IMG/VR virus record: IMGVR_UViG_3300028583_002208
Source of the DNA: a virus
Taxonomy: Duplodnaviria > Heunggongvirae > Uroviricota > Caudoviricetes
Direction: 5' to 3' (one strand)
Length of the DNA: 42,919 bases
The notes under the pieces are model-generated. The model was not told where the DNA came from. It was given only the letters and a program-made list of their open reading frames with translations, and did not search any database. Shown piece by piece: positions 112-34,108 of this stretch; position 1 is the stretch's first letter; every line of letters starts with the position of its first letter. The translations under genes and the position numbers were made by a program.

Positions 112-1569
112 ATGGCTAAAAAGAAAGCTCATCAACTCCCCCGCTTTAGTAAATCAATCCTAGAAAAACCTCAACTCATATTAGAATCTAAATTCCGAGA
201 AATATCAGAAGTTCTTGAAAACAGAGAAAACCTTAATGCATATAAAGAAGAACTTCTTTTGTCAGAGGATTTCAATGAAGGTAAAGAATATTTAAACATT
301 TCAGAAGATATTGGTATTCTTAGAGTAGAAGGTCCAACAACTTATAAACCTAATGGTTTTGAAGCTTTATGCGGCGGTTGTAGTTACACAAGTTTACTTT
401 CTCAAATGCAAGAATTTGCTGAGGAAGGTGTTAAAACTGTATTGATGAAACTAGATTCAGGAGGCGGTCAGAGCTACCGCATGATTTTTACGGCAACCCA
501 GTTACGTAAGATTGCAGATGACAATAAGATCCGATTAATAGGGTATATTGATGGCATGGCAGCATCTGCTGGTATGGGTTTAGCTGCAGCTTGTCACGAG
601 TTGATTGCCAATCCAGAAGCCGAAGCAGGTTCTATTGGTGTGGTGATTTCTCTTGCTAACAACAGTAAGCAACTTGAGAAAGAAGGTATTGAACGTACAT
701 TCATTACTGCTGGTAGCGAAAAAGTTCCATTTGAAGATGATGGTAGTTTCCGTAAAGGTTTCTTAGAAGATTTACAGGAAAGTGTAGACGACCTTTATAT
801 CAAGTTTACCAACCATGTAGCTAACATGCGTAATATTTCTGTTCAAACTGTCCGTGATACACAAGCCAGAATGTTTAAAGCAGAGAAAGCTTTACAACTA
901 GGTTTAATCGATAAAATCATGGAAGAAGATGAATTCCAAGCTTATCTGGGTGGTTATTCTATCACTCCTGAGCAACAACAAGGCACTACACAAGTAGCTG
1001 CAAAATTAACTAAGACTGATGAGGAAATCTTAATGTCGAAGAACACAGAGCAAGCTTCTAGTGTTGATGCTGAACAATTAGCTCAACTTCAAGAACTTGA
1101 AACAATCAAAACAAAATTAGCCGCTCTTGAAGCAGAGAAAGAGCAAGCTTCTACAGAATTGGCAAATTATAAAGCTAAAGAAGCACTTGCTGCAAAAGAA
1201 GCACTTGAAGCTAAATTAGATTCTAGCGTATGGGCTGCTGATTGTAAGGAGTCTTTAGTGTCAGTATTACTTTCTGATGAAGTATCTGGTACATATAAAG
1301 AACTTTTAAACACTGTTATCGCTTCTGCTGATATGGCTGTTAATGAGTTAACTGGTAAAGTTGAAGAAGCTACTTCTGCACTTACTGTAGCTCAAGAAGA
1401 ATTTGCAGCAAAAGAAGAAACACTTCAAGCTGAAATGAAAACTATTCAAGAAGAATTTGGTGCTGCTCCTCAAACTACTGAAGAAGCATTACCTCAGACA
1501 GATACTACATCATTAAGTATCGAAGAGCAATTAGCAATTAATCTTAAAAAGTTAAACGCTAACAAGTAA
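112..1569 (+). CDS. Prohead maturation protease (S49 family) fused to a C-terminal scaffold region
   Basis: S49-like motifs LDSGGG, GMAASA and AGSIGV; Ala/Glu-rich coiled-coil C-terminus; ATG 112 follows AAGGA and is preferred over the ORF-track start at 82. Confidence 0.9.
   Translation: MAKKKAHQLPRFSKSILEKPQLILESKFREISEVLENRENLNAYKEELLLSEDFNEGKEYLNISEDIGILRVEGPTTYKPNGFEALCGGCSYTSLLSQMQEFAEEGVKTVLMKLDSGGGQSYRMIFTATQLRKIADDNKIRLIGYIDGMAASAGMGLAAACHELIANPEAEAGSIGVVISLANNSKQLEKEGIERTFITAGSEKVPFEDDGSFRKGFLEDLQESVDDLYIKFTNHVANMRNISVQTVRDTQARMFKAEKALQLGLIDKIMEEDEFQAYLGGYSITPEQQQGTTQVAAKLTKTDEEILMSKNTEQASSVDAEQLAQLQELETIKTKLAALEAEKEQASTELANYKAKEALAAKEALEAKLDSSVWAADCKESLVSVLLSDEVSGTYKELLNTVIASADMAVNELTGKVEEATSALTVAQEEFAAKEETLQAEMKTIQEEFGAAPQTTEEALPQTDTTSLSIEEQLAINLKKLNANK
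1033..1569 (+). CDS. Putative nested scaffolding protein (internal in-frame start)
   Basis: GAGGA at 1021-1025 precedes an in-frame ATG at 1033, where the protease domain ends; same layout as lambda C/Nu3. Confidence 0.6.
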   Translation: MSKNTEQASSVDAEQLAQLQELETIKTKLAALEAEKEQASTELANYKAKEALAAKEALEAKLDSSVWAADCKESLVSVLLSDEVSGTYKELLNTVIASADMAVNELTGKVEEATSALTVAQEEFAAKEETLQAEMKTIQEEFGAAPQTTEEALPQTDTTSLSIEEQLAINLKKLNANK

Positions 1570-1616
1570 TCCCTGCATTAGCAGAACATAATAATTATAA
1601 ATAAAGGAAAAATATA

Positions 1617-1985
1617 ATGGCTACATTATCTCGTAACCAAGTTGTATTACGTGCTCTTCAAGGTGAAGGTACTGGCGATGCAATGATTAACACAACTCTT
1701 CAAGTTACTAAAACTGCTACTATGACTCATGGTACTTTGCTTAAAGCTGACTTCACTGAAGCTGCTGATGCTGATATCACTGCTGGTGACGTTGTCTACG
1801 TAATTGATGATTATCTAATTGACGCTGTTGCAACTGGTGACGAAGCTACTATCCGTGCAGTTGTTGAACTGGATTGGGTTATCTTCCGTGCAGAAGAATT
1901 AAAAGTTGGTAGCACACCACTTACAGAAGCACAGCTTACAGCATTCGGTAAAAAGACTCAAGCTTCTCACGAAGTATTAGTTTAA
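1617..1985 (+). CDS. Head decoration protein (putative)
   Basis: 122 aa, between protease and major capsid genes, strong RBS, highly expressed-type codon usage. Confidence 0.7.
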   Translation: MATLSRNQVVLRALQGEGTGDAMINTTLQVTKTATMTHGTLLKADFTEAADADITAGDVVYVIDDYLIDAVATGDEATIRAVVELDWVIFRAEELKVGSTPLTEAQLTAFGKKTQASHEVLV

Positions 1986-2019
1986 TCCAACAATAATAAG
2001 AATAAAAGGAAAATAAATA

Positions 2020-3060
2020 ATGGCAGATTTACGCTTAGGTGATCAAGGTTTACAGAACTTTACACCACTGATGACACTAGTTCCACGTGTTGAGAACATG
2101 CTTGAGAAAATGGGTTTATTTGATGTAGACTATTCTGAGGAGAGTGTTGTTGCATTTGAACGTATTGTTACTGGTATGGATAACATGTACTCAGTTGCTC
2201 GTGGTGCAGACCGTCAAATTGCGGGTGATGATGAGGCGCGTACAGCTTGGGTAGAAATCCCATTCTTCTCACTAGATTATATTATCAAACCAAAAGATGT
2301 ACAATCTTTACGTGAGTTTGCAACTGCTCAAGACCCTGAAACAGTTCGTTCAAAAGCTGCTCGTGTTATTGCACGTATCCAAAAATCTCACGCTAAGACT
2401 ATCCAAAAGTGTATGTATCAAGCGCTTAAAGGCTCTACTTATGCAGTAGATGCTGATGGTAATCCTCGTCCAAACTTACAACGTTCATTCCAGTCGATGT
2501 TTGAAATCGCTGATGCGGACATGTATAATGGTGCAGCAGGTGGTGCGGCATCTTATGACCTTACTGACCAAGCTATCAACCCAGCAGATGAATTTGAAAA
2601 AGTTCGTAAACATGTGTTTAACAAAGCGGGTGACTTAGGTGATGATTACGAGATCGTAGCTATCCTTGGTACAGATGCTTTCACAGCACTTAAAAACCAC
2701 ACTGACTACGTTGAAGCATTCGCTAACTACGCATCACAAGAAGAGCCTTTACGTCAACGTTTAGGTGGCCTTTCTACAGGTCGTGTACTTCGCTGGCAGG
2801 GTATCACTTACCTTGAAGACGTAAGTGGTCAAGTAGAGTCTAATAAAGGTTACGTATTCCCACGTGGTGTTGATGATATGTTTAAGACTATCTACGGTCA
2901 TTCAGACACTATCGCTGGTGCAAACCGTGAAGAAGAAATTTCTGAAGGTTACCTGTTCATCATGAGTGACTTACGTAAAGAGATTGTATCTAGTGATCTC
3001 GCCGTGGTTTGTTGTAACAGTCGTCCTGACCTTATCGCAAGCTACACGTTCACTGTTTAA
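2020..3060 (+). CDS. Major capsid protein (lambda E-like, HK97 fold)
   Basis: 346 aa; resembles Felix O1-type capsid proteins (EIPFF..I.P.DVQ.LR; C-terminal C.SRPDL); position; followed by a terminator. Confidence 0.92.
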   Translation: MADLRLGDQGLQNFTPLMTLVPRVENMLEKMGLFDVDYSEESVVAFERIVTGMDNMYSVARGADRQIAGDDEARTAWVEIPFFSLDYIIKPKDVQSLREFATAQDPETVRSKAARVIARIQKSHAKTIQKCMYQALKGSTYAVDADGNPRPNLQRSFQSMFEIADADMYNGAAGGAASYDLTDQAINPADEFEKVRKHVFNKAGDLGDDYEIVAILGTDAFTALKNHTDYVEAFANYASQEEPLRQRLGGLSTGRVLRWQGITYLEDVSGQVESNKGYVFPRGVDDMFKTIYGHSDTIAGANREEEISEGYLFIMSDLRKEIVSSDLAVVCCNSRPDLIASYTFTV

Positions 3061-3083
3061 TTTATAGTTGAACAATTTAAAGA

Positions 3084-3107
3084 GAGAAGCCTTGTGCTTC
3101 TCCTTTT
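3084..3107 (+). terminator. Intrinsic terminator after the capsid gene
   Basis: GAGAAGC-cttgt-GCTTCTC followed by CTTTT. Confidence 0.7.
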
Positions 3108-3204
3108 AATAAAACATTCTAATATAGAGTAGTTTATTAAAAGGAGACTTCTCCAAAAGTCATTACATGGAATGTGACTTACAATTATCCCAGAGAGGAA
3201 ACGA

Positions 3205-3693
3205 ATGAAAGAACAATACAAACTTTTTAAAACTAAGAAACAATTCTACCAATGGTTACAATTCTTCATCGAAGATTTAGATTTCAACAAGAGTATCACT
3301 AGCTCACGATTTTCATTCTTCGTAGGAAAAGATTTCTACCATTGCCCTAATATGCGAATCATGTGTGAGAAGTTGAATAACTTCCTACCAGAAGAAGCAC
3401 AACTTGATGAAGTAGCTTCTCGTATCAAAGGCCAAGTTGCAATCATGTTATTCTTCAAGAATGCTGTTGCTGAAAAGGAAACTACTGTAGAAGAAGCTCC
3501 TGTTGAAGAAGATAAGCCAGAAGAAGAAGAGTTAATCACTTTAGAAGTGGATAAGCCTGATTGGGACAAAGTTGATGCAATGGAAGATAAAGATGAATTA
3601 GCAGATTATGCTGAATCTTTCAAAGTAACATTAGCTAAAAATGCTAAACTTGAGAACATGAAGAAAAAGTTTAAAAATGAATACTCAGCTTAA
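3205..3693 (+). CDS. Hypothetical protein with a small helical C-terminal domain
   Basis: GAGG RBS; acidic linker, then KDELADYAESF.V.L...KLENMKK resembling a HeH/Rho-N-like module. Confidence 0.8.
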   Translation: MKEQYKLFKTKKQFYQWLQFFIEDLDFNKSITSSRFSFFVGKDFYHCPNMRIMCEKLNNFLPEEAQLDEVASRIKGQVAIMLFFKNAVAEKETTVEEAPVEEDKPEEEELITLEVDKPDWDKVDAMEDKDELADYAESFKVTLAKNAKLENMKKKFKNEYSA

Positions 3694-3715
3694 TATAATT
3701 AAAAGTTAAGAGTTT

Positions 3716-3755
3716 AAAGACCGCCAAGGGACATTCTCTCTTAGGCGGTCTTTTT
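3716..3755 (+). terminator. Intrinsic terminator, probably bidirectional
   Basis: AAAGACCGCC...GGCGGTCTTTTT between convergent genes. Confidence 0.85.
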
Positions 3756-3771
3756 GCGTAAAGGGGTAAAG

Positions 3772-4116
3772 TTAATCTAAATAATCCAATAGGTCAACAC
3801 CACACGCCTCACAATAACCTAACAAATAGCTGAATGTGATAATACCGTTAGCAAGATTTCTTTGTAAGCAAGTGATCCCTTTCTTAATGGTGTTATATTC
3901 CCAATCAGAAGTCATTTCCCAACTATACCCCTTCTCAGAATATCCTTTCCCAGAAAGTAGTTCCTTCTTAGAAGGTATCTTGTTCTTAACATGACACACT
4001 ATGTAACAATAGTTATCCAATTTTAACAAAGTAAGATAAGGAAAAGTTGTATTCCCTTTAGCCACTTGGATTGTTTTGTCAAAAGTCAAGACACTCTCAT
4101 TAACATCAAAATTCAT
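3772..4116 (-). CDS. Hypothetical protein inserted antisense in the head module
   Basis: AAGGA RBS before ATG 4116 (MNFDV...); own promoter upstream. Confidence 0.7.
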   Translation of the reverse strand: MNFDVNESVLTFDKTIQVAKGNTTFPYLTLLKLDNYCYIVCHVKNKIPSKKELLSGKGYSEKGYSWEMTSDWEYNTIKKGITCLQRNLANGIITFSYLLGYCEACGVDLLDYLD

Positions 4117-4142
4117 AAATAGTTTCCTTGTTTTAAAGGGAC

Positions 4143-4170
4143 ATTTTAACATTATAAAATCTTATGTCAA
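4143..4170 (-). promoter_or_regulatory. sigma70-like promoter
   Basis: TTGACA-16 bp-TAAAAT with extended -10 TG. Confidence 0.65.
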
Positions 4171-4187
4171 GTAAGTAAGGAGTTTCT

Positions 4188-5003
4188 ATGACACCTGTTG
4201 ATATAACCGTCACAGGAGAAGATTTCGTTTCTATTAATCAAGAGGCAGATATACCTGTAGGGACAGAGTTACAACTACAAACTAAAAGTAATCACCCTAT
4301 AGTGATTCAAAGATCAGATTTAAAACCTTCCCCTGATAATAGTAACGGTAGAATTATGAAGGGGGTAGGAAATAAGTCTTCTGTTTATACGATAAGTACT
4401 GGGTCAGAAGAGGTGTGGTTGCGTCTACTCTCTGATAACACATTAAACAGAGGCGTAGTTACTGCTGGGTTCTTTTCGGAAACAACCCCTGTAGAGGTAG
4501 AGTATGCAGCGAGGTTGGACGGTTTGAGTCAATATTGGCAAACATCCTCTCCAGTAACAGCTTCTACTCTAAGTTTCACTTTTATAAAAGACGGCGTAAC
4601 TGGTGATCCAGAAGATAATGCTATGGGAGTATTAGCACTTAATAATAGTACCACTTATTTAACATTACTACCTACAGGTATTATTGAAGTAAATTCAGCT
4701 ATTAGTTCTTTAACTTTCAATGAGGATGTTATTTCTGATGGTGATGACATTACTTCATACTTAGATGGCAGAAAATTATCGGTTGTAGTTAATTTCTCCT
4801 CTCCCACACAGTTCAATATACTAGGAAGAGGACGTTATGTTATACAATTCTTAGAGGGTATTCTGTACAACATTAATGTGGATAATGGACTTCTTATATT
4901 ACCAATGGATGACCCAGAACAAGGTGATACCCAAAACCCTACCACAGGAACTACTACTATAAGAATGTTAAATTATAGTGGTGATGTGTGGGAGGAGGTT
5001 TAA
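4188..5003 (+). CDS. Putative accessory virion protein
   Basis: AAGGAG RBS; beta-rich; N-terminal ~95 aa paralogous to 5295-5582. Confidence 0.75.
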   Translation: MTPVDITVTGEDFVSINQEADIPVGTELQLQTKSNHPIVIQRSDLKPSPDNSNGRIMKGVGNKSSVYTISTGSEEVWLRLLSDNTLNRGVVTAGFFSETTPVEVEYAARLDGLSQYWQTSSPVTASTLSFTFIKDGVTGDPEDNAMGVLALNNSTTYLTLLPTGIIEVNSAISSLTFNEDVISDGDDITSYLDGRKLSVVVNFSSPTQFNILGRGRYVIQFLEGILYNINVDNGLLILPMDDPEQGDTQNPTTGTTTIRMLNYSGDVWEEV

Positions 5004-6990: not shown

Positions 6991-8208
6991 TTACTTCCAC
7001 CACTCGTTTATATAATCTTTACAAAAGGAACAAACCTCTTCATAATGTTTGTTCTTAACTAACTCACTACTTCCGTAAGTATTTTCTGGTCGGTCAGAAT
7101 CATAAATACCGTCACCAAAACCTATGAGCAACTGTTCTAAGTTAAATATGGTTATGTGATCTGCTTGTAAGGTGAGGGTTTGTGTAAAAGTGAATTTATC
7201 TTTTCCGTAGAAATTATCTAACCTACCCTGATTTTCTTTCAACCTCCTATTTAGGTCAAAAGTTCTCCCAACTTTAAAATAAGGTAGGCCAGATATAAGT
7301 AGGTACAGATTATCAGGGTAATGTTCTTTCCCTTTAAAGTATCCAAAGTTACTTACAGCACAAGACCTGCATCTTTGACCTGAGATATATCTACTTGCAG
7401 ATGTGAGGCAAGGGTGATTGTTATTACAAACCCAATGAAATTTACTATTAACATCTTCATATGGTTTATCCCATTTTAAGAAAGTTGATTTTTCAGATGA
7501 CAATATTTTATTTATTTTGAAATTTATGATATTATAAGGGTATCTATAACTATTGCTGCATCTGCAAGGTAAGGAACCTTTCCGTAAGCCAGAGGCAGTT
7601 GATGAGAATACCCCAGAACACAAACCCTCTTCTACGTATTCATCATAAGAGCAAGAAGGGCAAGTGTAGGTCCACCTAGCAGTATTCTCACTGTCTCTAT
7701 AAAATTTAGTACCTTCTTTAAATTTACCTGATTCCCAGAAAGATTTTATATTATCTTTATCACTCTTAAACATACGTTTCGACGAAGCCAAACGCCGTAC
7801 CTCAGGATCTCTTTTACCATTGTTTATAAAATTGTTTATATTGCAGCTACTCCAAGTATTATCTGTAACGGGATTGTGTAATATAAGTTTAGTATCCACC
7901 CCTAACCATTCACCATCAAACCCTAAAAATGTATATCCTAGGTCAAGACATTTACGTTGTATCTTAACAACCCACTGGTACTCTTTCCATTTAGTAGACT
8001 TGGAACAACCGCAAGGAACTCTACCCTTTAAAAGGTGGCTCTTAGATATTAAAAAATCCTCGCTGAAAAGTTCTTTATCCTGACTACAGATAGAACATTC
8101 AACTTTATACTTGACTTTCCAGTTATTAACTTCTTTCCCCGTTACCGTCAAAACACCACCCCCGTAAGTAGTGAAAGTTTCTCCGATAAAATTATCAACT
8201 TTTTTCAT
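6991..8208 (-). CDS. Free-standing homing endonuclease (Cys/Zn-ribbon repeats plus T5orf172 GIY-YIG domain)
   Basis: Repeated CxxC...CxCS modules; C-terminal LYLL...FKVGRT...RRLKE...LEQ. Confidence 0.85.
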   Translation of the reverse strand: MKKVDNFIGETFTTYGGGVLTVTGKEVNNWKVKYKVECSICSQDKELFSEDFLISKSHLLKGRVPCGCSKSTKWKEYQWVVKIQRKCLDLGYTFLGFDGEWLGVDTKLILHNPVTDNTWSSCNINNFINNGKRDPEVRRLASSKRMFKSDKDNIKSFWESGKFKEGTKFYRDSENTARWTYTCPSCSYDEYVEEGLCSGVFSSTASGLRKGSLPCRCSNSYRYPYNIINFKINKILSSEKSTFLKWDKPYEDVNSKFHWVCNNNHPCLTSASRYISGQRCRSCAVSNFGYFKGKEHYPDNLYLLISGLPYFKVGRTFDLNRRLKENQGRLDNFYGKDKFTFTQTLTLQADHITIFNLEQLLIGFGDGIYDSDRPENTYGSSELVKNKHYEEVCSFCKDYINEWWK

Positions 8209-12738: not shown

Positions 12739-13194
12739 ATGTTACCAACAAGAAAGAAAACTATCGGTGGAAAGACTTACACAATCAACCTACTTACCAC
12801 ATGGGAATGTTTTAAAGGTAGTCGTACATTGTTAAAAACCATTGCACCAGTGATGGGTGAAGTTTTGGATAGCAAAAATGTGGATGAAGATTACTCAGCT
12901 TTCAACAAAGTTAATACTTTTAAGGAAGTGATGGGTCTTATCGCAGATGATTTAGATAAGCCTGAAATTGATAAGCTTATTGCAAAGATGTTAATCGGCG
13001 CTTCAAATGATGAGGGTGTACAATTTAACAACTTTGAAGATTTGGATAAAGATTTCCGAGGCAAGCCAGAATTATTTATGGAATTTGTATTCTTTCTGTT
13101 CGAGGAGAATTTTAAAGGTTTTTTTACAGAAAACGTTATAACACGGTCATGGAAAGGGGTGCTGTCGAAGGTGATGCAACCTACAGAGGAATAG
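12739..13194 (+). CDS. Tail assembly chaperone (G-like)
   Basis: Between tube and tape measure; MLPTRKKTIGGKTY; slippery site near the 3' end. Confidence 0.8.
   Translation: MLPTRKKTIGGKTYTINLLTTWECFKGSRTLLKTIAPVMGEVLDSKNVDEDYSAFNKVNTFKEVMGLIADDLDKPEIDKLIAKMLIGASNDEGVQFNNFEDLDKDFRGKPELFMEFVFFLFEENFKGFFTENVITRSWKGVLSKVMQPTEE
13119..13125 (+). promoter_or_regulatory. Putative -1 ribosomal frameshift site T TTT TTT
   Basis: GGT TTT TTT in frame; the -1 frame is open from 13116 to 13406. Confidence 0.75.
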
Positions 13195-13406
13195 TTGATA
13201 AACACGTAGAAAAGTATTCTACTATTTCTCCTGATCGTTTATATCAAAACATGGTTGCAAAGTATACATGGAAAAATTATGGAATTAGTTATCAACAATT
13301 GATGCACGAGTCACACATTGATGAATACCTTGATTGGGAAGAGGAAATGTTGATGAATCAGGATTATGAAATTGCACAATATGAAGATACAAAACCAAAA
13401 GATTAA
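13125..13406 (+). CDS. Tail chaperone T-like extension, expressed as a G-T fusion of ~222 aa
   Basis: -1 frame relative to 12739; overlaps the end of G. Confidence 0.7.
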   Translation, partial: YRKRYNTVMERGAVEGDATYRGIVDKHVEKYSTISPDRLYQNMVAKYTWKNYGISYQQLMHESHIDEYLDWEEEMLMNQDYEIAQYEDTKPKD

Positions 13407-13469: not shown

Positions 13470-14628
13470 ATGTCTAATATAATTGAAGAATTTGTAATAA
13501 AGTTTCTCACTGATTCTAAGGAAGCTAAGAAGGGTGCTCAAGAGATTGATAAACTTCTTGACAGTGTAGGTAAAAAACAAGTTAAACGTGCTACAACCAA
13601 TGCAAAGGTTGAAAATAAAGCACACAAAACAATGTTAGCAAAGAAACTAAAGGACGAAGCTACTTACGGAAGGGATAGTCGTATTCAAGCTGATAAGGCT
13701 CGTAAGGCATGGGAACGTAGGGAAAAGATTAAATCCATCATGCCAAATAACCAACTTGCTAATAAAAGTGCTCAAAGTAGTGCTAGTGTTTTCGAAAAAA
13801 GTTTCAAAGAAGAAGCTGTACAATCAGCAAAACTTTCTGAAATGGAAAGGAAGCGGTGGGTTGATAAGCAAAAACGTAGAGCTGCTAATAGAAGGCAAAG
13901 GGAAGATGATCGGAGGCAAGAAGAGGATTCTTATAGAAAGTCTCTTAATAATCGCCTAAAAGCTTTCAAGGCTTCTAAACAAAAAGAACGAAAACTTACA
14001 GAAGATATAGACAAGCAAGCTGCAATGATCCGTAGAACGGCGGGGTTCAAACTTGCGGGACGTATGGGCGAAAGTGGTAAATATGACAGCGAGATACAAC
14101 GTTTAGTAGATAAGAAAGACCTTGCGGGACTGAGAAACCTTCGCTACGAGATGTCTGATGTTCGTGAAAATATGACTCGTTATCGTAAGAGTTTAAGGAA
14201 AACTAACATTGCTCAAAAAGGACTTACCGATTCTACAAGGAATATGATCCGTAGTTATGCAAGTTTATATGCTATTTTTGAAGGAACCACTGCAATTAAG
14301 CGGGTAGGGCAAGACTTTCAGGGGATGGAGGCATCTATGTTGGCTGCAAGTGGTAGTACTGAAGCTGCTGCAAAGGATATGATGTTTATAAATGGAATTG
14401 TTGATGAAATGGGTCTTAGTTTAAAAGATACTACAGACGCTTTTGTTAAGTTTAAATTTGCATCAAAAGGAAAAATTTCCCAAACGGAACAAGAGGACTT
14501 ATTCACAGGATTGAGTATGTTCGGGACAGCATTGAAGGTAGATGATGAAAGCATGAAGCGAAGTCAGAAAGCCTTGATCCAGATGATGTCCAAGGGAAAA
14601 ATTATGGCAGAAGAATTAAAAAACCAGT
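13470..14628 (+). CDS. Tape measure protein, exon 1
   Basis: Tape-measure motif QMMSKGKIMAEELKNQ ends at the 5' splice site. Confidence 0.9.
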
Positions 14629-15755
14629 TAAAACAAAGACTTAGCTGCCTAGTATAGAAATGTACTAGTGAAAAACTCCTTTAATTGTCTGGGAAGCCGT
14701 AAAACTTTACTTTTATAAAATATAATGTTAATATAGTATTTTATAGAGTAGAGATATATTGGTAATCAGCAGCGAAGACCACTTATATCTCCTGAAACAG
14801 GAGAGTGAAATGATAAAAGATATACCTAATTTTTCAGGGTATTTTGCAGATGTAGATGGTAATATCTACTCTAGCAAAAAGGGTAATATAATTAAGAAAT
14901 TAACACCGCAGTATCAAAAACAGTGGGGTTATTATTCTTTGAGGCTTATAGCAGATTGCGGTAATAAGAAGCACATGACAGTTCACAGACTAATGGCTCT
15001 AACTTACCTGCCAAACCCTGATAACCTACCAGAAGTAAACCATAAGAACGGAGTGAAAACCGATAACAGGTTATCAAACCTAGAATGGATGTCTAAGAGT
15101 GATAATATTAAACACGCTTACCAGATAGGTATGAACTGTGTAAAAGGTGTTCTCAACGGAAGGTCAACTTTAGAAGAACAAGAAGTTTTAGAGATTTATA
15201 ACAAACTTTACCAAGGTGTTAGTACAAATAGCTTAATGCAAGAGTACAATACAAGTAGGAGCATTATCAGTAATATAAAAAGAAGAGAAGCTTGGTCACA
15301 TTTAACCAAAGACCTTCCTGATATTACTATAAAAGTTAAATCTAAGACTCTTCCTGAAAATATTGTCAGGTTTATATGTGAGAACCTAGAAAGGGGTTTA
15401 TCTCCTACAAAAATACTAACCTTGTGTTTGGAAACTTTTGGAGAAGGTTCAGTACGAATCGATAATATCTATGATATAAAGAGACGTAGAGGTTTTAAAA
15501 ATATCTTATCAGATTATAAATGGTAACGTTCAACGATCATTGAAAGCTAACTGTAAAACAGTGCGAGTAAAGTACAGCCTAAGTTTATGAGGTAGATGTG
15601 GTGAGTAATAATCATGTAATCCATCTTTAAATGGAAATGGGGAGAACCTAAACAAGTTAAGTTGTAGGTTAAGATATGATCTAGTCTTGCATGAAAGTGC
15701 AAGCTGATACAAGGATGTTACGGGAGAGGTGTTACGAGCCTCTTCGAATACAACG
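14629..15755 (+). mobile_element. Group I self-splicing intron (1127 nt, IA2-like) with an HNH ORF in L6
   Basis: Exon ends in U and intron ends in G; P1 CAGU|UAA with UUAGCUG (14641-14647); P10 UAGGU with ACUUA; P 14683-14695, Q 14764-14773, R 15528-15540, S 15671-15682; splicing restores QLGDSLPGAVQ. Confidence 0.93.
14810..15526 (+). CDS. Intron-encoded HNH homing endonuclease (NUMOD4 + HNH + HTH-like repeats)
   Basis: IPNFSGYFADVDGNIYS; VHRLMA..YLPNP...VNHKNGVKTDNRLSNLEW; CAGGAG RBS before ATG 14810. Confidence 0.92.
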   Translation: MIKDIPNFSGYFADVDGNIYSSKKGNIIKKLTPQYQKQWGYYSLRLIADCGNKKHMTVHRLMALTYLPNPDNLPEVNHKNGVKTDNRLSNLEWMSKSDNIKHAYQIGMNCVKGVLNGRSTLEEQEVLEIYNKLYQGVSTNSLMQEYNTSRSIISNIKRREAWSHLTKDLPDITIKVKSKTLPENIVRFICENLERGLSPTKILTLCLETFGEGSVRIDNIYDIKRRRGFKNILSDYKW

Positions 15756-16687
15756 TAGGTGATAGTTTGCCAGGGGCAGTGCAAATATTTACAAGGGCTT
15801 TAGGAGTCACTGAAGCTGAACTATTCAAAATGATGGAACAAGGTCAACTCCTTTCAGCAGAAGTATTACCAAAAGTAGCAGCCGAGTTTAAAAAATCAGC
15901 AAAAGAAGGTGGGGCATACACACTAGCCTTACAAGGACTACGTGTTAAAGAAGGTCAATTTATGACTGGAATGCAACGTGCAGGGAAAACCATATTCAAC
16001 TCAGGTTTTGAAAAAGGGTTAGCAAACCTTTATGGCACACTGTCAACCATGTTCGAAAACTCAGAACCCCAACTTAAAAAATTAGGTAAAATATTTGGTG
16101 ATGTATTCAATGGAATATCCATTGCCATAAAAGTATTAGAACCTATTATGAAAATTGCCATAGATAACTTTTACACACTTGTAGGGGCAAAGGCAATCTT
16201 TATGGTAAGGGGTTTTGTTGGTGCATTAAATGCACAAAGTTACATTGCAGCAAGAGCATGGGCTAGAATGTTTGCCCCTGTAGCAGCAGCGTTAGTTTTA
16301 GTAGATGAATTAGCTTCTCTAATGGACGATTCCCGTTTAGGTTTACTTGAGAAGAGTATTGGTAAACAGGTGAACGTTAAAACAGGAAGTATTAGCGAAT
16401 TTACTGAGAAGAATGGTAAGTTTTATGCGAAAGAGGGAAGCAGTAGCAAAGTGTCAGGACTTTCAATGGGGTTCAGTGCAGTGTCTAATGCTGTCCAGAA
16501 TATGAATCCATTCCACTCAGTTTATAATGCTGCTACGTCAGCTTCGGATTTATTCCAATCAGGTATGACTTCTGGAAGTGCAGTGTATAACCATTATCAA
16601 AATACATTCAACAATACTCAAGCTGATGATGTTAAACGTGCAGTGGGTGCAGGTGTATCTGCAGCACAACAACCAAGAGGAAAATAA
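15756..16687 (+). CDS. Tape measure protein, exon 2 (spliced product 696 aa)
   Basis: 1159+932=2091 nt, an intact frame; continues LPGAVQIF.RALG. Confidence 0.9.
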
Positions 16688-17305: not shown

Positions 17306-17659
17306 ATGTTTCAAATAAAAATCACAGAATCCGCTTACCAAGAAAAAACTTTCACCGCAAATAAAACTACTTTTTATATAAGAGCTACATTCAACACGAG
17401 TGATGACTATTGGTACATTGACCTTGCTGATAAAGATAACAATGACATTATAAACGGTATTAAAATCTTGCCAGATCAATTTCTGACTAGGAAATACTTA
17501 GATTTGGAGGAAGCTTTTGGAGGAGGTGCATTGCGGTGTTATAACAATGAAAGTAGTGATGACATTATTGGAAGGGATAACTTTGGTACAGATAAACAAT
17601 ATCAATTAATATACTGGACTGCAACAGAGGTGGAAGCTTATGACGAAGCTACTGGATAG
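17306..17659 (+). CDS. Baseplate-associated protein
   Basis: Abuts the previous gene; FN...DYWYIDL...IINGIKI motif. Confidence 0.7.
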   Translation: MFQIKITESAYQEKTFTANKTTFYIRATFNTSDDYWYIDLADKDNNDIINGIKILPDQFLTRKYLDLEEAFGGGALRCYNNESSDDIIGRDNFGTDKQYQLIYWTATEVEAYDEATG

Positions 17660-18659
17660 ACAATACCGTCTTGTAATAGGGCTACCTCCTAAAATTGTAG
17701 ATATCGATCCTTCAACCGAAGTGGTGTCTAATATATTCAAGCAGAATGTAGTTGTCGGAAGTTTGGATACTTCTTTAACAAACGACTTCAGAACAGAAAC
17801 CACCCTCCGTGCCAAAGAGTTCAGAGAACTCCGACTTATAGCAGATGTAACTTCTTCCTCTAAAGCAGGTGGTGCAAAAGGTGGTAACACTACTATCCAA
17901 TTATATAACTTGTCAGAAGAAAGTTTAGCAATAGTTGAACAAGAAAATGCACAAGTTATCCTTGAAGCAGGATATTACTCCGATTTTGAAGATGAGGATA
18001 GAACACTCCCACTCCTATTCACAGGTCAAACCCGACAAGTTAAAACTATTCAATCTGGTGAAGATAAGATCACTGTTATAGAATGTACCGCTGCACAAGC
18101 TGTTAATGACTCTGTAAAGGTGAGTAAATACTTCGAAGAAGGTAACACTTTAGGTAATGTTCTTGAATATTTGATAGATATTTATGGACAAAATGGAGTC
18201 CCCCTTGGTCAATATGTAGGTAGAGCTTCTACAGAAGATAGAGTAGACTATGTGCAATTACTTTCTCCTGATGACGTTCCTTTAACAAACGGGTACAGTG
18301 TTACAGGTTTCCTCCACCAAGCTTTGGATAAAGCCACTGCACAATGTGGGTACATTTGGTATATTGCGAACGGTAGGTTATTCGTTCATCCTAGAGGATA
18401 CACCAAGTCTGTAGAACAATTCACTTTAGATAATGATCTAATAAAATCTATCGAAGGTGTTATTGATAATAAGAAAGATAAGATAACTGGTGTCACAATC
18501 TCAACCTTCTTAGACGCACGTATGTCCATTGATAAAAGGATTGAGGTCACTGACGGCAAGTTTGAAGGGGTTTATAAAATTGTACAAGCCACTCACAACT
18601 TAGATAATGAACTTGGTGCATGGGATACTGTCCTTACCTGTCAATCACTTGTTCAATAA
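17640..18659 (+). CDS. Baseplate hub protein
   Basis: IQLYNLS...VILEAGY...LLFTG; W.IANG.L; YKI....H.LD motifs. Confidence 0.8.
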   Translation: MTKLLDRQYRLVIGLPPKIVDIDPSTEVVSNIFKQNVVVGSLDTSLTNDFRTETTLRAKEFRELRLIADVTSSSKAGGAKGGNTTIQLYNLSEESLAIVEQENAQVILEAGYYSDFEDEDRTLPLLFTGQTRQVKTIQSGEDKITVIECTAAQAVNDSVKVSKYFEEGNTLGNVLEYLIDIYGQNGVPLGQYVGRASTEDRVDYVQLLSPDDVPLTNGYSVTGFLHQALDKATAQCGYIWYIANGRLFVHPRGYTKSVEQFTLDNDLIKSIEGVIDNKKDKITGVTISTFLDARMSIDKRIEVTDGKFEGVYKIVQATHNLDNELGAWDTVLTCQSLVQ

Positions 18660-32884: not shown

Positions 32885-34108
32885 TTATTTTAGGTTGAAG
32901 GTGGAGAGGATTTCTGGGTGATTGAGTATTTCTTTGGTGAAACATTCAGTAAATCCTCCAAAGGGTGTAGAAGGTATATAGGAATATTCTGATAATACCT
33001 TATGAGTAGCTTTTTCTTTATAGAAAATATTACTATGAATATCTTTATATGTAGCTATGCATTCAGTCTTATAATAGGTATTTATATCCTTTACTCTAGT
33101 ACTAACATTAAAACTTCGGCCTACTTTATAAAAATCTTCGGTATCAGATAGTAATCGGAATAAGTAAAGGTTATCTTCATCCTCTAACCTATCCTTGTAT
33201 AAACCCCAATAACTTCTATCCTTACTGCACTTAGGACATCTGTTGCCTCCTGACAATACATTATAATATAAAGGACTCCATTCTGTTTTACAAGCTTTGC
33301 AACTAAGATTAACCCTTTCCGAAGACTCAGAATCCCAGCTACTAAAGAATATAGGATCGTTTTCTAAACACCTACTAAGATTAAATTCTTTTTGTGGTAA
33401 GCTCCAACGATAACCTACAGAACATCTACAAGATTTAGCACCTGCTTTCAAACTTCCTATGAATATTTGGAATACCCCAGAACACAAACCTCTTTTCACA
33501 TATTCATCATTAGAACATTTAGGACATGTATATTCAAAGTAATTTCTAGCATTACCAGTGGTTACTCTGTCACTTCTCCAGAAGACTGTACCCTCTAAGA
33601 AACCATAATTAGTTTCTAAGTCTTTTATAATTTCGTCAGTTTTACTATCTACAATAGATTTAAGTTTCTCAGATTTACATAATTTGCAACCACCCCCATC
33701 ATAATCTTTCTTAGCAACAGCTCTTGCTTCGGTGGTGTCCCATACATAAGAATGTAAGTCACACTTAAGTTTAACATGTGTAGTAGTACCTTTATAGATA
33801 TCATCTTTGAAACCTATGAAGGTTACAGGAAAACTTTCTAAATTAGTTTTAATCTTCTTTAATATCTTCTTTTCACTCTTATCTTTAGCACTTTCTAAAC
33901 TACAATTACCACAAGGACATCCTTCTCTCATGACGTGCTTTTCTATGGAAGTTGTCTCCCAGTACCTGCAACTGGTCTTACAGTACAACTTACATTTTGA
34001 CCTTCCGTTAATATTATCACCTACAAAACCTAAAAATATTTGTCCTTTCTTTCTAGAAACTTCTGCACACTCATCATACCTTACTTCTAAAGGTATCCTT
34101 TTACCCAT
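32885..34108 (-). CDS. Free-standing homing endonuclease (Zn-ribbon repeats plus T5orf172 GIY-YIG domain)
   Basis: YTCPKCSNDEYV..GLCSGVF shared with 6991-8208; LYLFRL...YKVGRS...R...E. Confidence 0.85.
   Translation of the reverse strand: MGKRIPLEVRYDECAEVSRKKGQIFLGFVGDNINGRSKCKLYCKTSCRYWETTSIEKHVMREGCPCGNCSLESAKDKSEKKILKKIKTNLESFPVTFIGFKDDIYKGTTTHVKLKCDLHSYVWDTTEARAVAKKDYDGGGCKLCKSEKLKSIVDSKTDEIIKDLETNYGFLEGTVFWRSDRVTTGNARNYFEYTCPKCSNDEYVKRGLCSGVFQIFIGSLKAGAKSCRCSVGYRWSLPQKEFNLSRCLENDPIFFSSWDSESSERVNLSCKACKTEWSPLYYNVLSGGNRCPKCSKDRSYWGLYKDRLEDEDNLYLFRLLSDTEDFYKVGRSFNVSTRVKDINTYYKTECIATYKDIHSNIFYKEKATHKVLSEYSYIPSTPFGGFTECFTKEILNHPEILSTFNLK

Follow-up and report, generated by a model that had tools for sequence, protein, structure and literature searches.

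A group I intron with a homing endonuclease gene is predicted within the tape measure gene of an uncultured marine myovirus

The tape measure protein (TMP) gene in IMG/VR virus record IMGVR_UViG_3300028583_002208 is cut, in the most conserved TMP motif, by an insert of 1127 nt (positions 14629-15755, read base by base), which raises the question of what this insert is and whether the coding sequence on its two sides still belongs to one gene. The record, 42,919 nucleotides from a seawater metagenome and analysed here over its whole length as the window, comes from an uncultured marine myovirus whose relatives include Pseudoalteromonas phages (Qingdaovirus, Shandongvirus) as well as ICP1-like phages; its nearest phages are the Pseudoalteromonas phages HM1 and J2-1, with exon DNA 82-86% identical, followed by H101 and PH357. 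We conclude that the insert is very probably a real group I intron with a homing endonuclease, a reading built on sequence anatomy, homology, covariation and population variants, from which we infer splicing and homing themselves. The parts of the interrupted gene are:

13470-14628, + strand: TMP exon 1, 386 codons plus 1 nt, ending in U
14629-15755, + strand: predicted group I intron of phage IA-type architecture, P1-P9.2 with a P7.1/P7.2-type insert (Rfam halves, helix table, RNAalifold)
15756-16687, + strand: TMP exon 2, 2 nt plus 309 codons plus stop

Before the insert the TMP frame reads ..MAEELKNQ, and from 15756 it continues as (L)GDSLPGAVQIFT. Exon 1 ends in ..AACCAGT at 14628 and exon 2 begins with TAGGTGAT at 15756; joined, the two give 2088 coding nt, or 696 codons without a stop, reading ..ELKNQLGDSLPGAVQIFT.., just as the original prediction had proposed. 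The insertion point lies inside a Leu codon, and across the restored junction, ..ELKNQ-L-GDSLPGAVQ.., the alignment with intronless TMPs is free of gaps. Such relatives, for which a search had been suggested, were found in Alteromonas phage PT11-V22 (645 aa), MF988720 (718 aa) and three further loci (L013, L021, L023), all uninterrupted through the motif, one example reading ..EELRLQLAESLPGAIQIF.., and in one metagenome contig CAGTTA is followed by GGCGATTCCCTTCCAGG, which is the intronless QLGDSLPG junction in DNA. Protein profiles are continuous across the join: Pfam TMP_3 (PF20155) matches exon 1 with 50.3 bits against a cutoff of 41 (profile positions 5-116) and carries on in exon 2 at positions 118-164, phrog_7817 covers positions 268-426 in exon 1 and then 425-736 in exon 2, and several further PHROG TMP families are split across the exons in the same way. 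With TA at both boundaries of the insert there is a 2-nt ambiguity, such that three cut positions are possible from sequence alone; we placed the cut at 14628/15756 because this is the sole option in which the 5' exon ends in U and the intron ends in G.

Read without splicing, the TMP frame passes through nine codons of the insert and stops at TAG 14655-14657, producing the 395-aa open reading frame (ORF) 13470-14657 that had been foreseen, while the ORF caller reports the second half as a separate 306-aa ORF starting from TTG (15767-16687). Automated annotation was expected to split the gene in this manner, and the GenBank records of J2-1 and H101 do so, listing a 'tape measure protein' and a 'hypothetical protein'. 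From its sequence, we read exon 1 and exon 2 as a single predicted 696-aa tape measure gene with an intron.

The predicted fold of the insert contains the following elements, all on the + strand:

14625-14631 with 14641-14647 (+): P1, CAGU-UAA (hyphen at the splice site) with UUAGCUG; 7 bp, U14628.G14644 at the splice site, the best helix by script
14639-14647 (+): guide sequence, of which 14639-14643 can also pair with exon 2 UAGGU to form P10
14649-14654 with 14663-14668 (+): P2 hairpin, CUAGUA/UACUAG; RNAalifold columns 34-51, with compensatory changes
14676-14681 with 15639-15644 (+): P3, CUCCUU/GGGGAG
between the 5' strands of P3 and P4 (+): J3/4, UAAU
14686-14692 with 14766-14771 (+): P4, with one bulged U (U14688)
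within 14696-14763 (+): P5 and an A/U-rich extension (Rfam alignment, RNAalifold)
14772-14787 with 15515-15529 (+): P6/P6a, the loop between the strands containing the endonuclease ORF
15535-15539 with 15677-15681 (+): P7 (helix table)
15540-15638 (+): P7.1/7.2-type insert, 99 nt, between P7 and the 3' strand of P3
15645-15650 with 15665-15670 (+): P8 (Rfam alignment, helix table, RNAalifold)
15671-15676 (+): J8/7, AAGAUA
15686-15703 (+): P9, compensatory pairs (RNAalifold)
within 15686-15744 (+): P9.1 and P9.2, the latter at 15724-15730 with 15738-15744, compensatory pairs (RNAalifold)
15755 (+): terminal G of the intron (omega G; sequence)

The insert thus has the hallmarks of a group I intron, namely a U.G splice pair in P1, a terminal G, the core helices P3-P8 and typical J3/4 and J8/7 segments. 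All of the pairings put forward in the original prediction (P1, P10, P2, P6a, P7 and P8) are present, with 9 of 10 positions paired in P6a (14778-14787 with 15515-15524), and P3, P4, P9 and P9.2 could be located in addition. Phage IA introns typically have such a P7.1/7.2-type insert and such additional P9 helices, the subgroup label being used informally here. When each half of the element was scanned alone with the Rfam group I model RF00028, the 5' half matched with 20.9 bits (E 0.0014; 14619-14795, model positions 1-123), the conserved splice-site U of the model being aligned to 14628 and the G that pairs with it to 14644, and the 3' half matched with 28.0 bits (E 1.7e-5; 15571-15703, spanning P3', P8, J8/7, P7' and P9).

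We compared the window intron with five related introns, those of L008, H101 site C, J2-1 site E, H101 site E and L009 (sites as listed further below). A U.G splice-site pair occurs in P1 of all six, with the guide sequence matching its own exon each time, and P3 is different yet complementary in every one (CUCCUU/GGGGAG, UUUCCC/GGGAAA, CCAUAU/AUAUGG, UCUAUC/GGUAGA, CCUAUC/GGUAGG and UUCCUU/GGGGAA). P7, P8, P9 and P9.2 are likewise altered on both strands among the six, and P4 in the window includes one G-C to U-A compensatory pair (RNAalifold columns 70-77/179-185). RNAalifold, run separately on the 5' and 3' halves, independently recovered P2, P4, P5, P8, P9, P9.1 and P9.2, with double changes at 18 of 34 predicted pairs in the 5' halves and 13 of 35 in the 3' halves; this covariation argues for selection on the RNA fold. 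Furthermore, TMP introns that carry no ORF score above the RF00028 gathering threshold of 50 bits in HM1 (64.2 bits), J2-1 (64.2 and 50.8 bits), H101 (80.3, 66.4 and 54.5 bits), L005 (70 bits), L006 (52.1 bits) and L012 (87.6 bits). Pairings, Rfam halves and covariation together bear out the proposal of a group I intron with an HNH ORF in its P6a loop, at the splice sites first suggested in the TMP gene.

RNAalifold also drew a candidate long-range pairing, GUUCA/UGAAU, between 15528-15532 in the J6/7 region and 15745-15749 in the 3' tail, conserved throughout the five introns of the alignment. One of its pairs is A.C in the window, and a metagenome variant (15745 C>T) restores A-U; the pairing competes for bases with P6 as assigned above, and true covariation is not seen in it.

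Four other studies, on sediment, sand, mollusc and food, supply contigs that span both intron junctions, and the arrangement is therefore not an assembly artefact. Among the sequencing runs listed for this sequence, none is an RNA run. Contig variants keep P9.2 paired, both where 15730 T>G occurs together with 15738 G>C (U.G to G-C) and at 15724 G>A (G.U to A-U), and all four variants listed inside the endonuclease ORF are synonymous, a pattern indicating that the intron element is under selection. Exact-pattern scans of viral and metagenome contigs gave no match to a near-identical intronless allele; a degenerate-pattern scan returned more distant alleles only, continuous across this part of the motif. 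One further contig (run X5) joins 14692 to 15673, and was set aside as most likely representing conserved core segments of a different intron.

Within the P6a loop lies an ORF in a frame unlike that of exon 1, preceded by a small RNA structure:

14810-15526, + strand: predicted HNH homing endonuclease gene, I-HmuI-like, 238 aa (Pfam HNH_3, phrog_59, 1U3E)
14788-14804, + strand: 7-bp hairpin over the endonuclease Shine-Dalgarno sequence (AGGAGA); centroid -9.3 kcal/mol, z -2.7

The 238-aa protein matches HNH_3 with 37 bits against a Pfam cutoff of 24.8 and phrog_59 with E 2.6e-42, and the N-terminal 105 residues align with I-HmuI (PDB 1U3E) at E 2e-8, an alignment that takes in the His/Asn motif (..NHKNG..DN..NLEW..). 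Its closest database relative is an HNH protein from the TMP region of Vibrio phage 1.084.O (42.7% identity); it shares 39.5% identity with the enzyme encoded by TMP intron 3 in ICP1 isolate 1992_Ind_M4, and the nuclease of the L008 intron, at 38%, is also among its closest relatives. The hairpin stands just 5' of the endonuclease AUG and has equivalents in relatives (RNAalifold columns 200-222); by covering the ribosome-binding site, it probably limits endonuclease translation. Similar hairpins were seen ahead of the HNH genes in J2-1 and H101 introns. Weak Rfam matches to Mu-gpT-DE, snoRNAs and His_leader were rejected as chance or as this small hairpin, the Mu-gpT-DE match (19.9 bits) being due to the hairpin at 14788-14812.

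These features suggest how the element might work. In the late transcript the intron would fold such that P1 presents U14628 in a U.G wobble pair, free guanosine would attack at this U, and the freed exon 1 would then attack after G15755, with P10 aligning exon 2 for ligation. The product would be a single mRNA, ..AACCAGT/TAGGTGAT.., encoding a 696-aa TMP with the junction peptide NQLGDSLPGAVQIFTR, while unspliced RNA would yield the 395-aa fragment only; tail assembly would on this account depend on splicing. The HNH endonuclease in the P6a loop would be translated independently and, by analogy with I-HmuI, would nick or cut the intronless TMP motif of co-infecting phages, whose repair would copy the intron in (homing).

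Several observations weigh against this reading. At the gathering threshold, Rfam gave no match over the whole window, and scanning with the ORF in place returned RF00028 as a local match of 16.1 bits only, so that the group I model scan suggested with the original prediction came out in part: both halves match (as above), and the whole falls short. P4 has its bulged U, P6a contains a C.A mismatch, and the P7.1/7.2-type insert is about 99 nt long as compared with about 35 nt in the closest relatives; given these oddities there is a small chance that the predicted catalytic activity of the window intron is reduced or lost. The sub-threshold score and the blemishes in P4 and P6a are what would be expected if the insert were a former group I intron that splices poorly or no longer, leaving the TMP broken or in need of a helper or of rare splicing, an explanation that we consider improbable. 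The low score is probably accounted for by the 717-nt ORF in P6a, which splits the ribozyme and prevents RF00028 from aligning to the element in one piece. Moreover, the core is intact in its helices and in J3/4 and J8/7, as are the U.G pair and the terminal G, the difference in P4 includes the compensatory U-A pair, and the element recurs with few changes in the four other studies, where its P9.2 variants are compensatory and its ORF variants synonymous.

A further point against a spliced TMP is the Shine-Dalgarno-like AGGUGA at 15757-15762, four nt before TTG 15767, which makes separate translation of the second half (15767-16687) formally possible. The TMP could then be made as two polypeptides from a gene split around a free-standing HNH gene, with RNA structure irrelevant, and split essential genes around homing endonucleases are known (PMC10448857). 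Such an arrangement is nonetheless highly unlikely here: the covariation reflects selection on the RNA fold, the relatives have exons of 8-39 nt in this region that are untranslatable alone, the metagenome variant at 15760, a position that precedes the TTG, leaves the protein of the spliced frame unchanged, and the exon 1 frame, which reads nine codons of the intron before its stop, has no conserved end. For an intein or a group II intron, which we regard as barely conceivable, nothing speaks beyond the interruption of a conserved gene. The stop that the exon frame meets nine codons into the insert excludes an intein, Rfam and Pfam scans found no group II family or reverse transcriptase, and the group I model matches both halves. 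A group I intron in a single TMP gene remains the reading that we prefer.

The TMP gene is interrupted in the same short stretch in all four of HM1, J2-1, H101 and PH357. Across ten TMP loci, joining the exon pieces restores the same motif in every case, and each of the 22 introns mapped there follows a 5' exon whose last base is T and itself ends in G. Their sites, in window exon coordinates, and the phages or loci occupied are:

Site A, after 14584: HM1, J2-1, H101, L005, L006
Site B, after 14609: HM1, J2-1, H101, L005, PH357, ICP1-M4
Site B', after 14617: H101, L006, L009, ICP1-M4
Site C, after 14628: window, L008, H101
Site C', after 15760: ICP1-M4
Site D, after 15772: HM1, L006
Site E, after 15775: J2-1, H101

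Seven group I sites thus share a stretch of about 65 coding nt in the TMP gene, with one to five introns per phage, and L012, a 142-kb IMG/VR contig, adds an eighth (Z) further upstream, its boundary approximate. Site C is occupied in L008 between the same two nucleotides despite a TMP that is only about 45% identical, and an H101 intron also lies at exactly this site. Loose contig ends in the metagenomes reveal site-A and site-B' introns in related populations. The most densely interrupted phage, H101 (L014, NC_029094), apparently has five TMP introns of 285, 327, 362, 405 and 1047 nt in 1511-4000, and the exons left between them measure 25, 8, 11 and 20 nt. Three of the five introns pass the Rfam gathering score; in the remaining two, all the helices are present, together with the U.G pair and a G at the end.

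ORF content was seen to differ at one site, as the site-A intron of HM1 has an ORF and that of J2-1 has none. L012 holds a second group I intron (626-914, 89.9 bits) in a tail-module gene about 4 kb upstream of its TMP intron. Vibrio phage 1.084.O (L019, MG592459) was left out of the site map; its TMP region (1947-4350) has two HNH genes and at least two, possibly three, inserts.

Parts of the window intron resemble introns from different sites. Its last 120 nt are similar to the site-E introns of H101 and J2-1 (78-85%) and its P7.1/7.2 region to the site-C intron of H101 (80%), so that the intron looks mosaic in its sequence. Combined with the nuclease relations, the mosaic 3' end and P7.1/7.2 region suggest recombination and retargeting among co-resident introns. 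We see about an even chance that the window intron is one occupant of an unusually crowded cluster of intron sites in which co-resident introns recombine and retarget via the guide sequence.

Around the TMP gene the window has a myovirus structural module, with a tail assembly chaperone (12739-13194) on one side and a baseplate hub (17640-18659) on the other. A downstream 85-aa ORF (13149-13406) overlaps that of the chaperone in a different frame, as is usual where a programmed frameshift (G/GT-type) precedes a tape measure gene. Two ORFs of about 405 aa on the - strand (6991-8208 and 32885-34108) have CapR homology domains and match phrog_681 'endonuclease', one of them with a weak T5orf172 match; one sits among the structural genes in reverse orientation, and the other adjoins the DNA polymerase gene. 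Both resemble the free-standing homing endonuclease genes found in ICP1.

Group I introns in TMP genes have already been published, in ICP1 and in prophages of the Bacillus cereus group. The ICP1 TMP transcript has 4 exons and 3 introns, whose splicing was proven by RNA sequencing and reverse-transcription PCR (Barth, Dunham & Seed 2023, PMC10448857), and we mapped these introns to the same motif in isolate M4 (1992_Ind_M4). ICP1 and the window share the gene and the motif, the group I type, a U as the last base of the 5' exon, a G as that of the intron, HNH_3 endonucleases, and the CapR/T5orf172 nuclease genes of ICP1 type. They differ in that ICP1 has three introns (sites B, B' and C') whereas the window has one (site C, 5 nt upstream of ICP1's third), in largely different intron sequences, and in that splicing in vivo has been demonstrated for the homologous TMP introns of ICP1 and is predicted for that of the window.

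In B. cereus-group prophages, IA1/IA2 introns (TMP-IVS1, IVS2 and IVS3) occupy three TMP sites, with related cores retargeted through P1 and different introns at one site, and at least two prophage introns (TMP-IVS3b and a tail-tube intron) lack a complete endonuclease gene (Tourasse & Kolsto 2008, PMC2504315). The retargeting and site-sharing patterns are common to these introns and those described here; in contrast, the prophages are Gram-positive siphoviruses whose unrelated TMP exceeds 1200 aa and whose sites are spread rather than packed into about 65 nt. The background given with the original prediction, that phage introns mostly lie in other genes, is out of date in view of both reports (PMC2504315, PMC10448857), and because TMP introns are documented in these phages the window case is less unusual than had been implied.

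The DNA polymerase intron of Bacillus phage SPO1 is, like the window's, a phage group I intron encoding an HNH endonuclease of the same family, which in SPO1 is I-HmuI. Its host gene and ribozyme sequence are different, and nicking and target are established for I-HmuI whereas those of the window enzyme are predicted. In the td, nrdB and nrdD introns of T4, which are of the phage IA type, the ORF is looped out of a peripheral helix, and T4 intron endonuclease is expressed under translational control; the td enzyme is of the GIY-YIG family. Landthaler and Shub reportedly described, in 1999, three introns in orf142 of Staphylococcus phage Twort. The T4 and Twort introns resemble that of the window in their IA type and peripheral-helix ORF, and Twort resembles the window's relatives in having several introns in one gene, but the genes and endonuclease families are different, and H101 apparently has five introns in its gene as compared with three in Twort.

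For annotation, these results would replace a 395-aa ORF, a 306-aa ORF and an HNH gene with one 696-aa TMP gene containing an intron, and the GenBank records of J2-1, H101 and PH357 call for the same change. By itself the window intron opens no new question, and the multi-intron cluster in its relatives is the more interesting lead, above all the five-intron case of H101. If all five H101 introns splice, they would exceed the three-intron cases of Twort orf142 and the ICP1 TMP, and the question would arise of how P1 and P10 form on exons as short as these. The window adds a marine, uncultured example of the conserved TMP motif as a preferred target of intron-borne homing endonucleases, and fits growing evidence that such elements move between distantly related phages.

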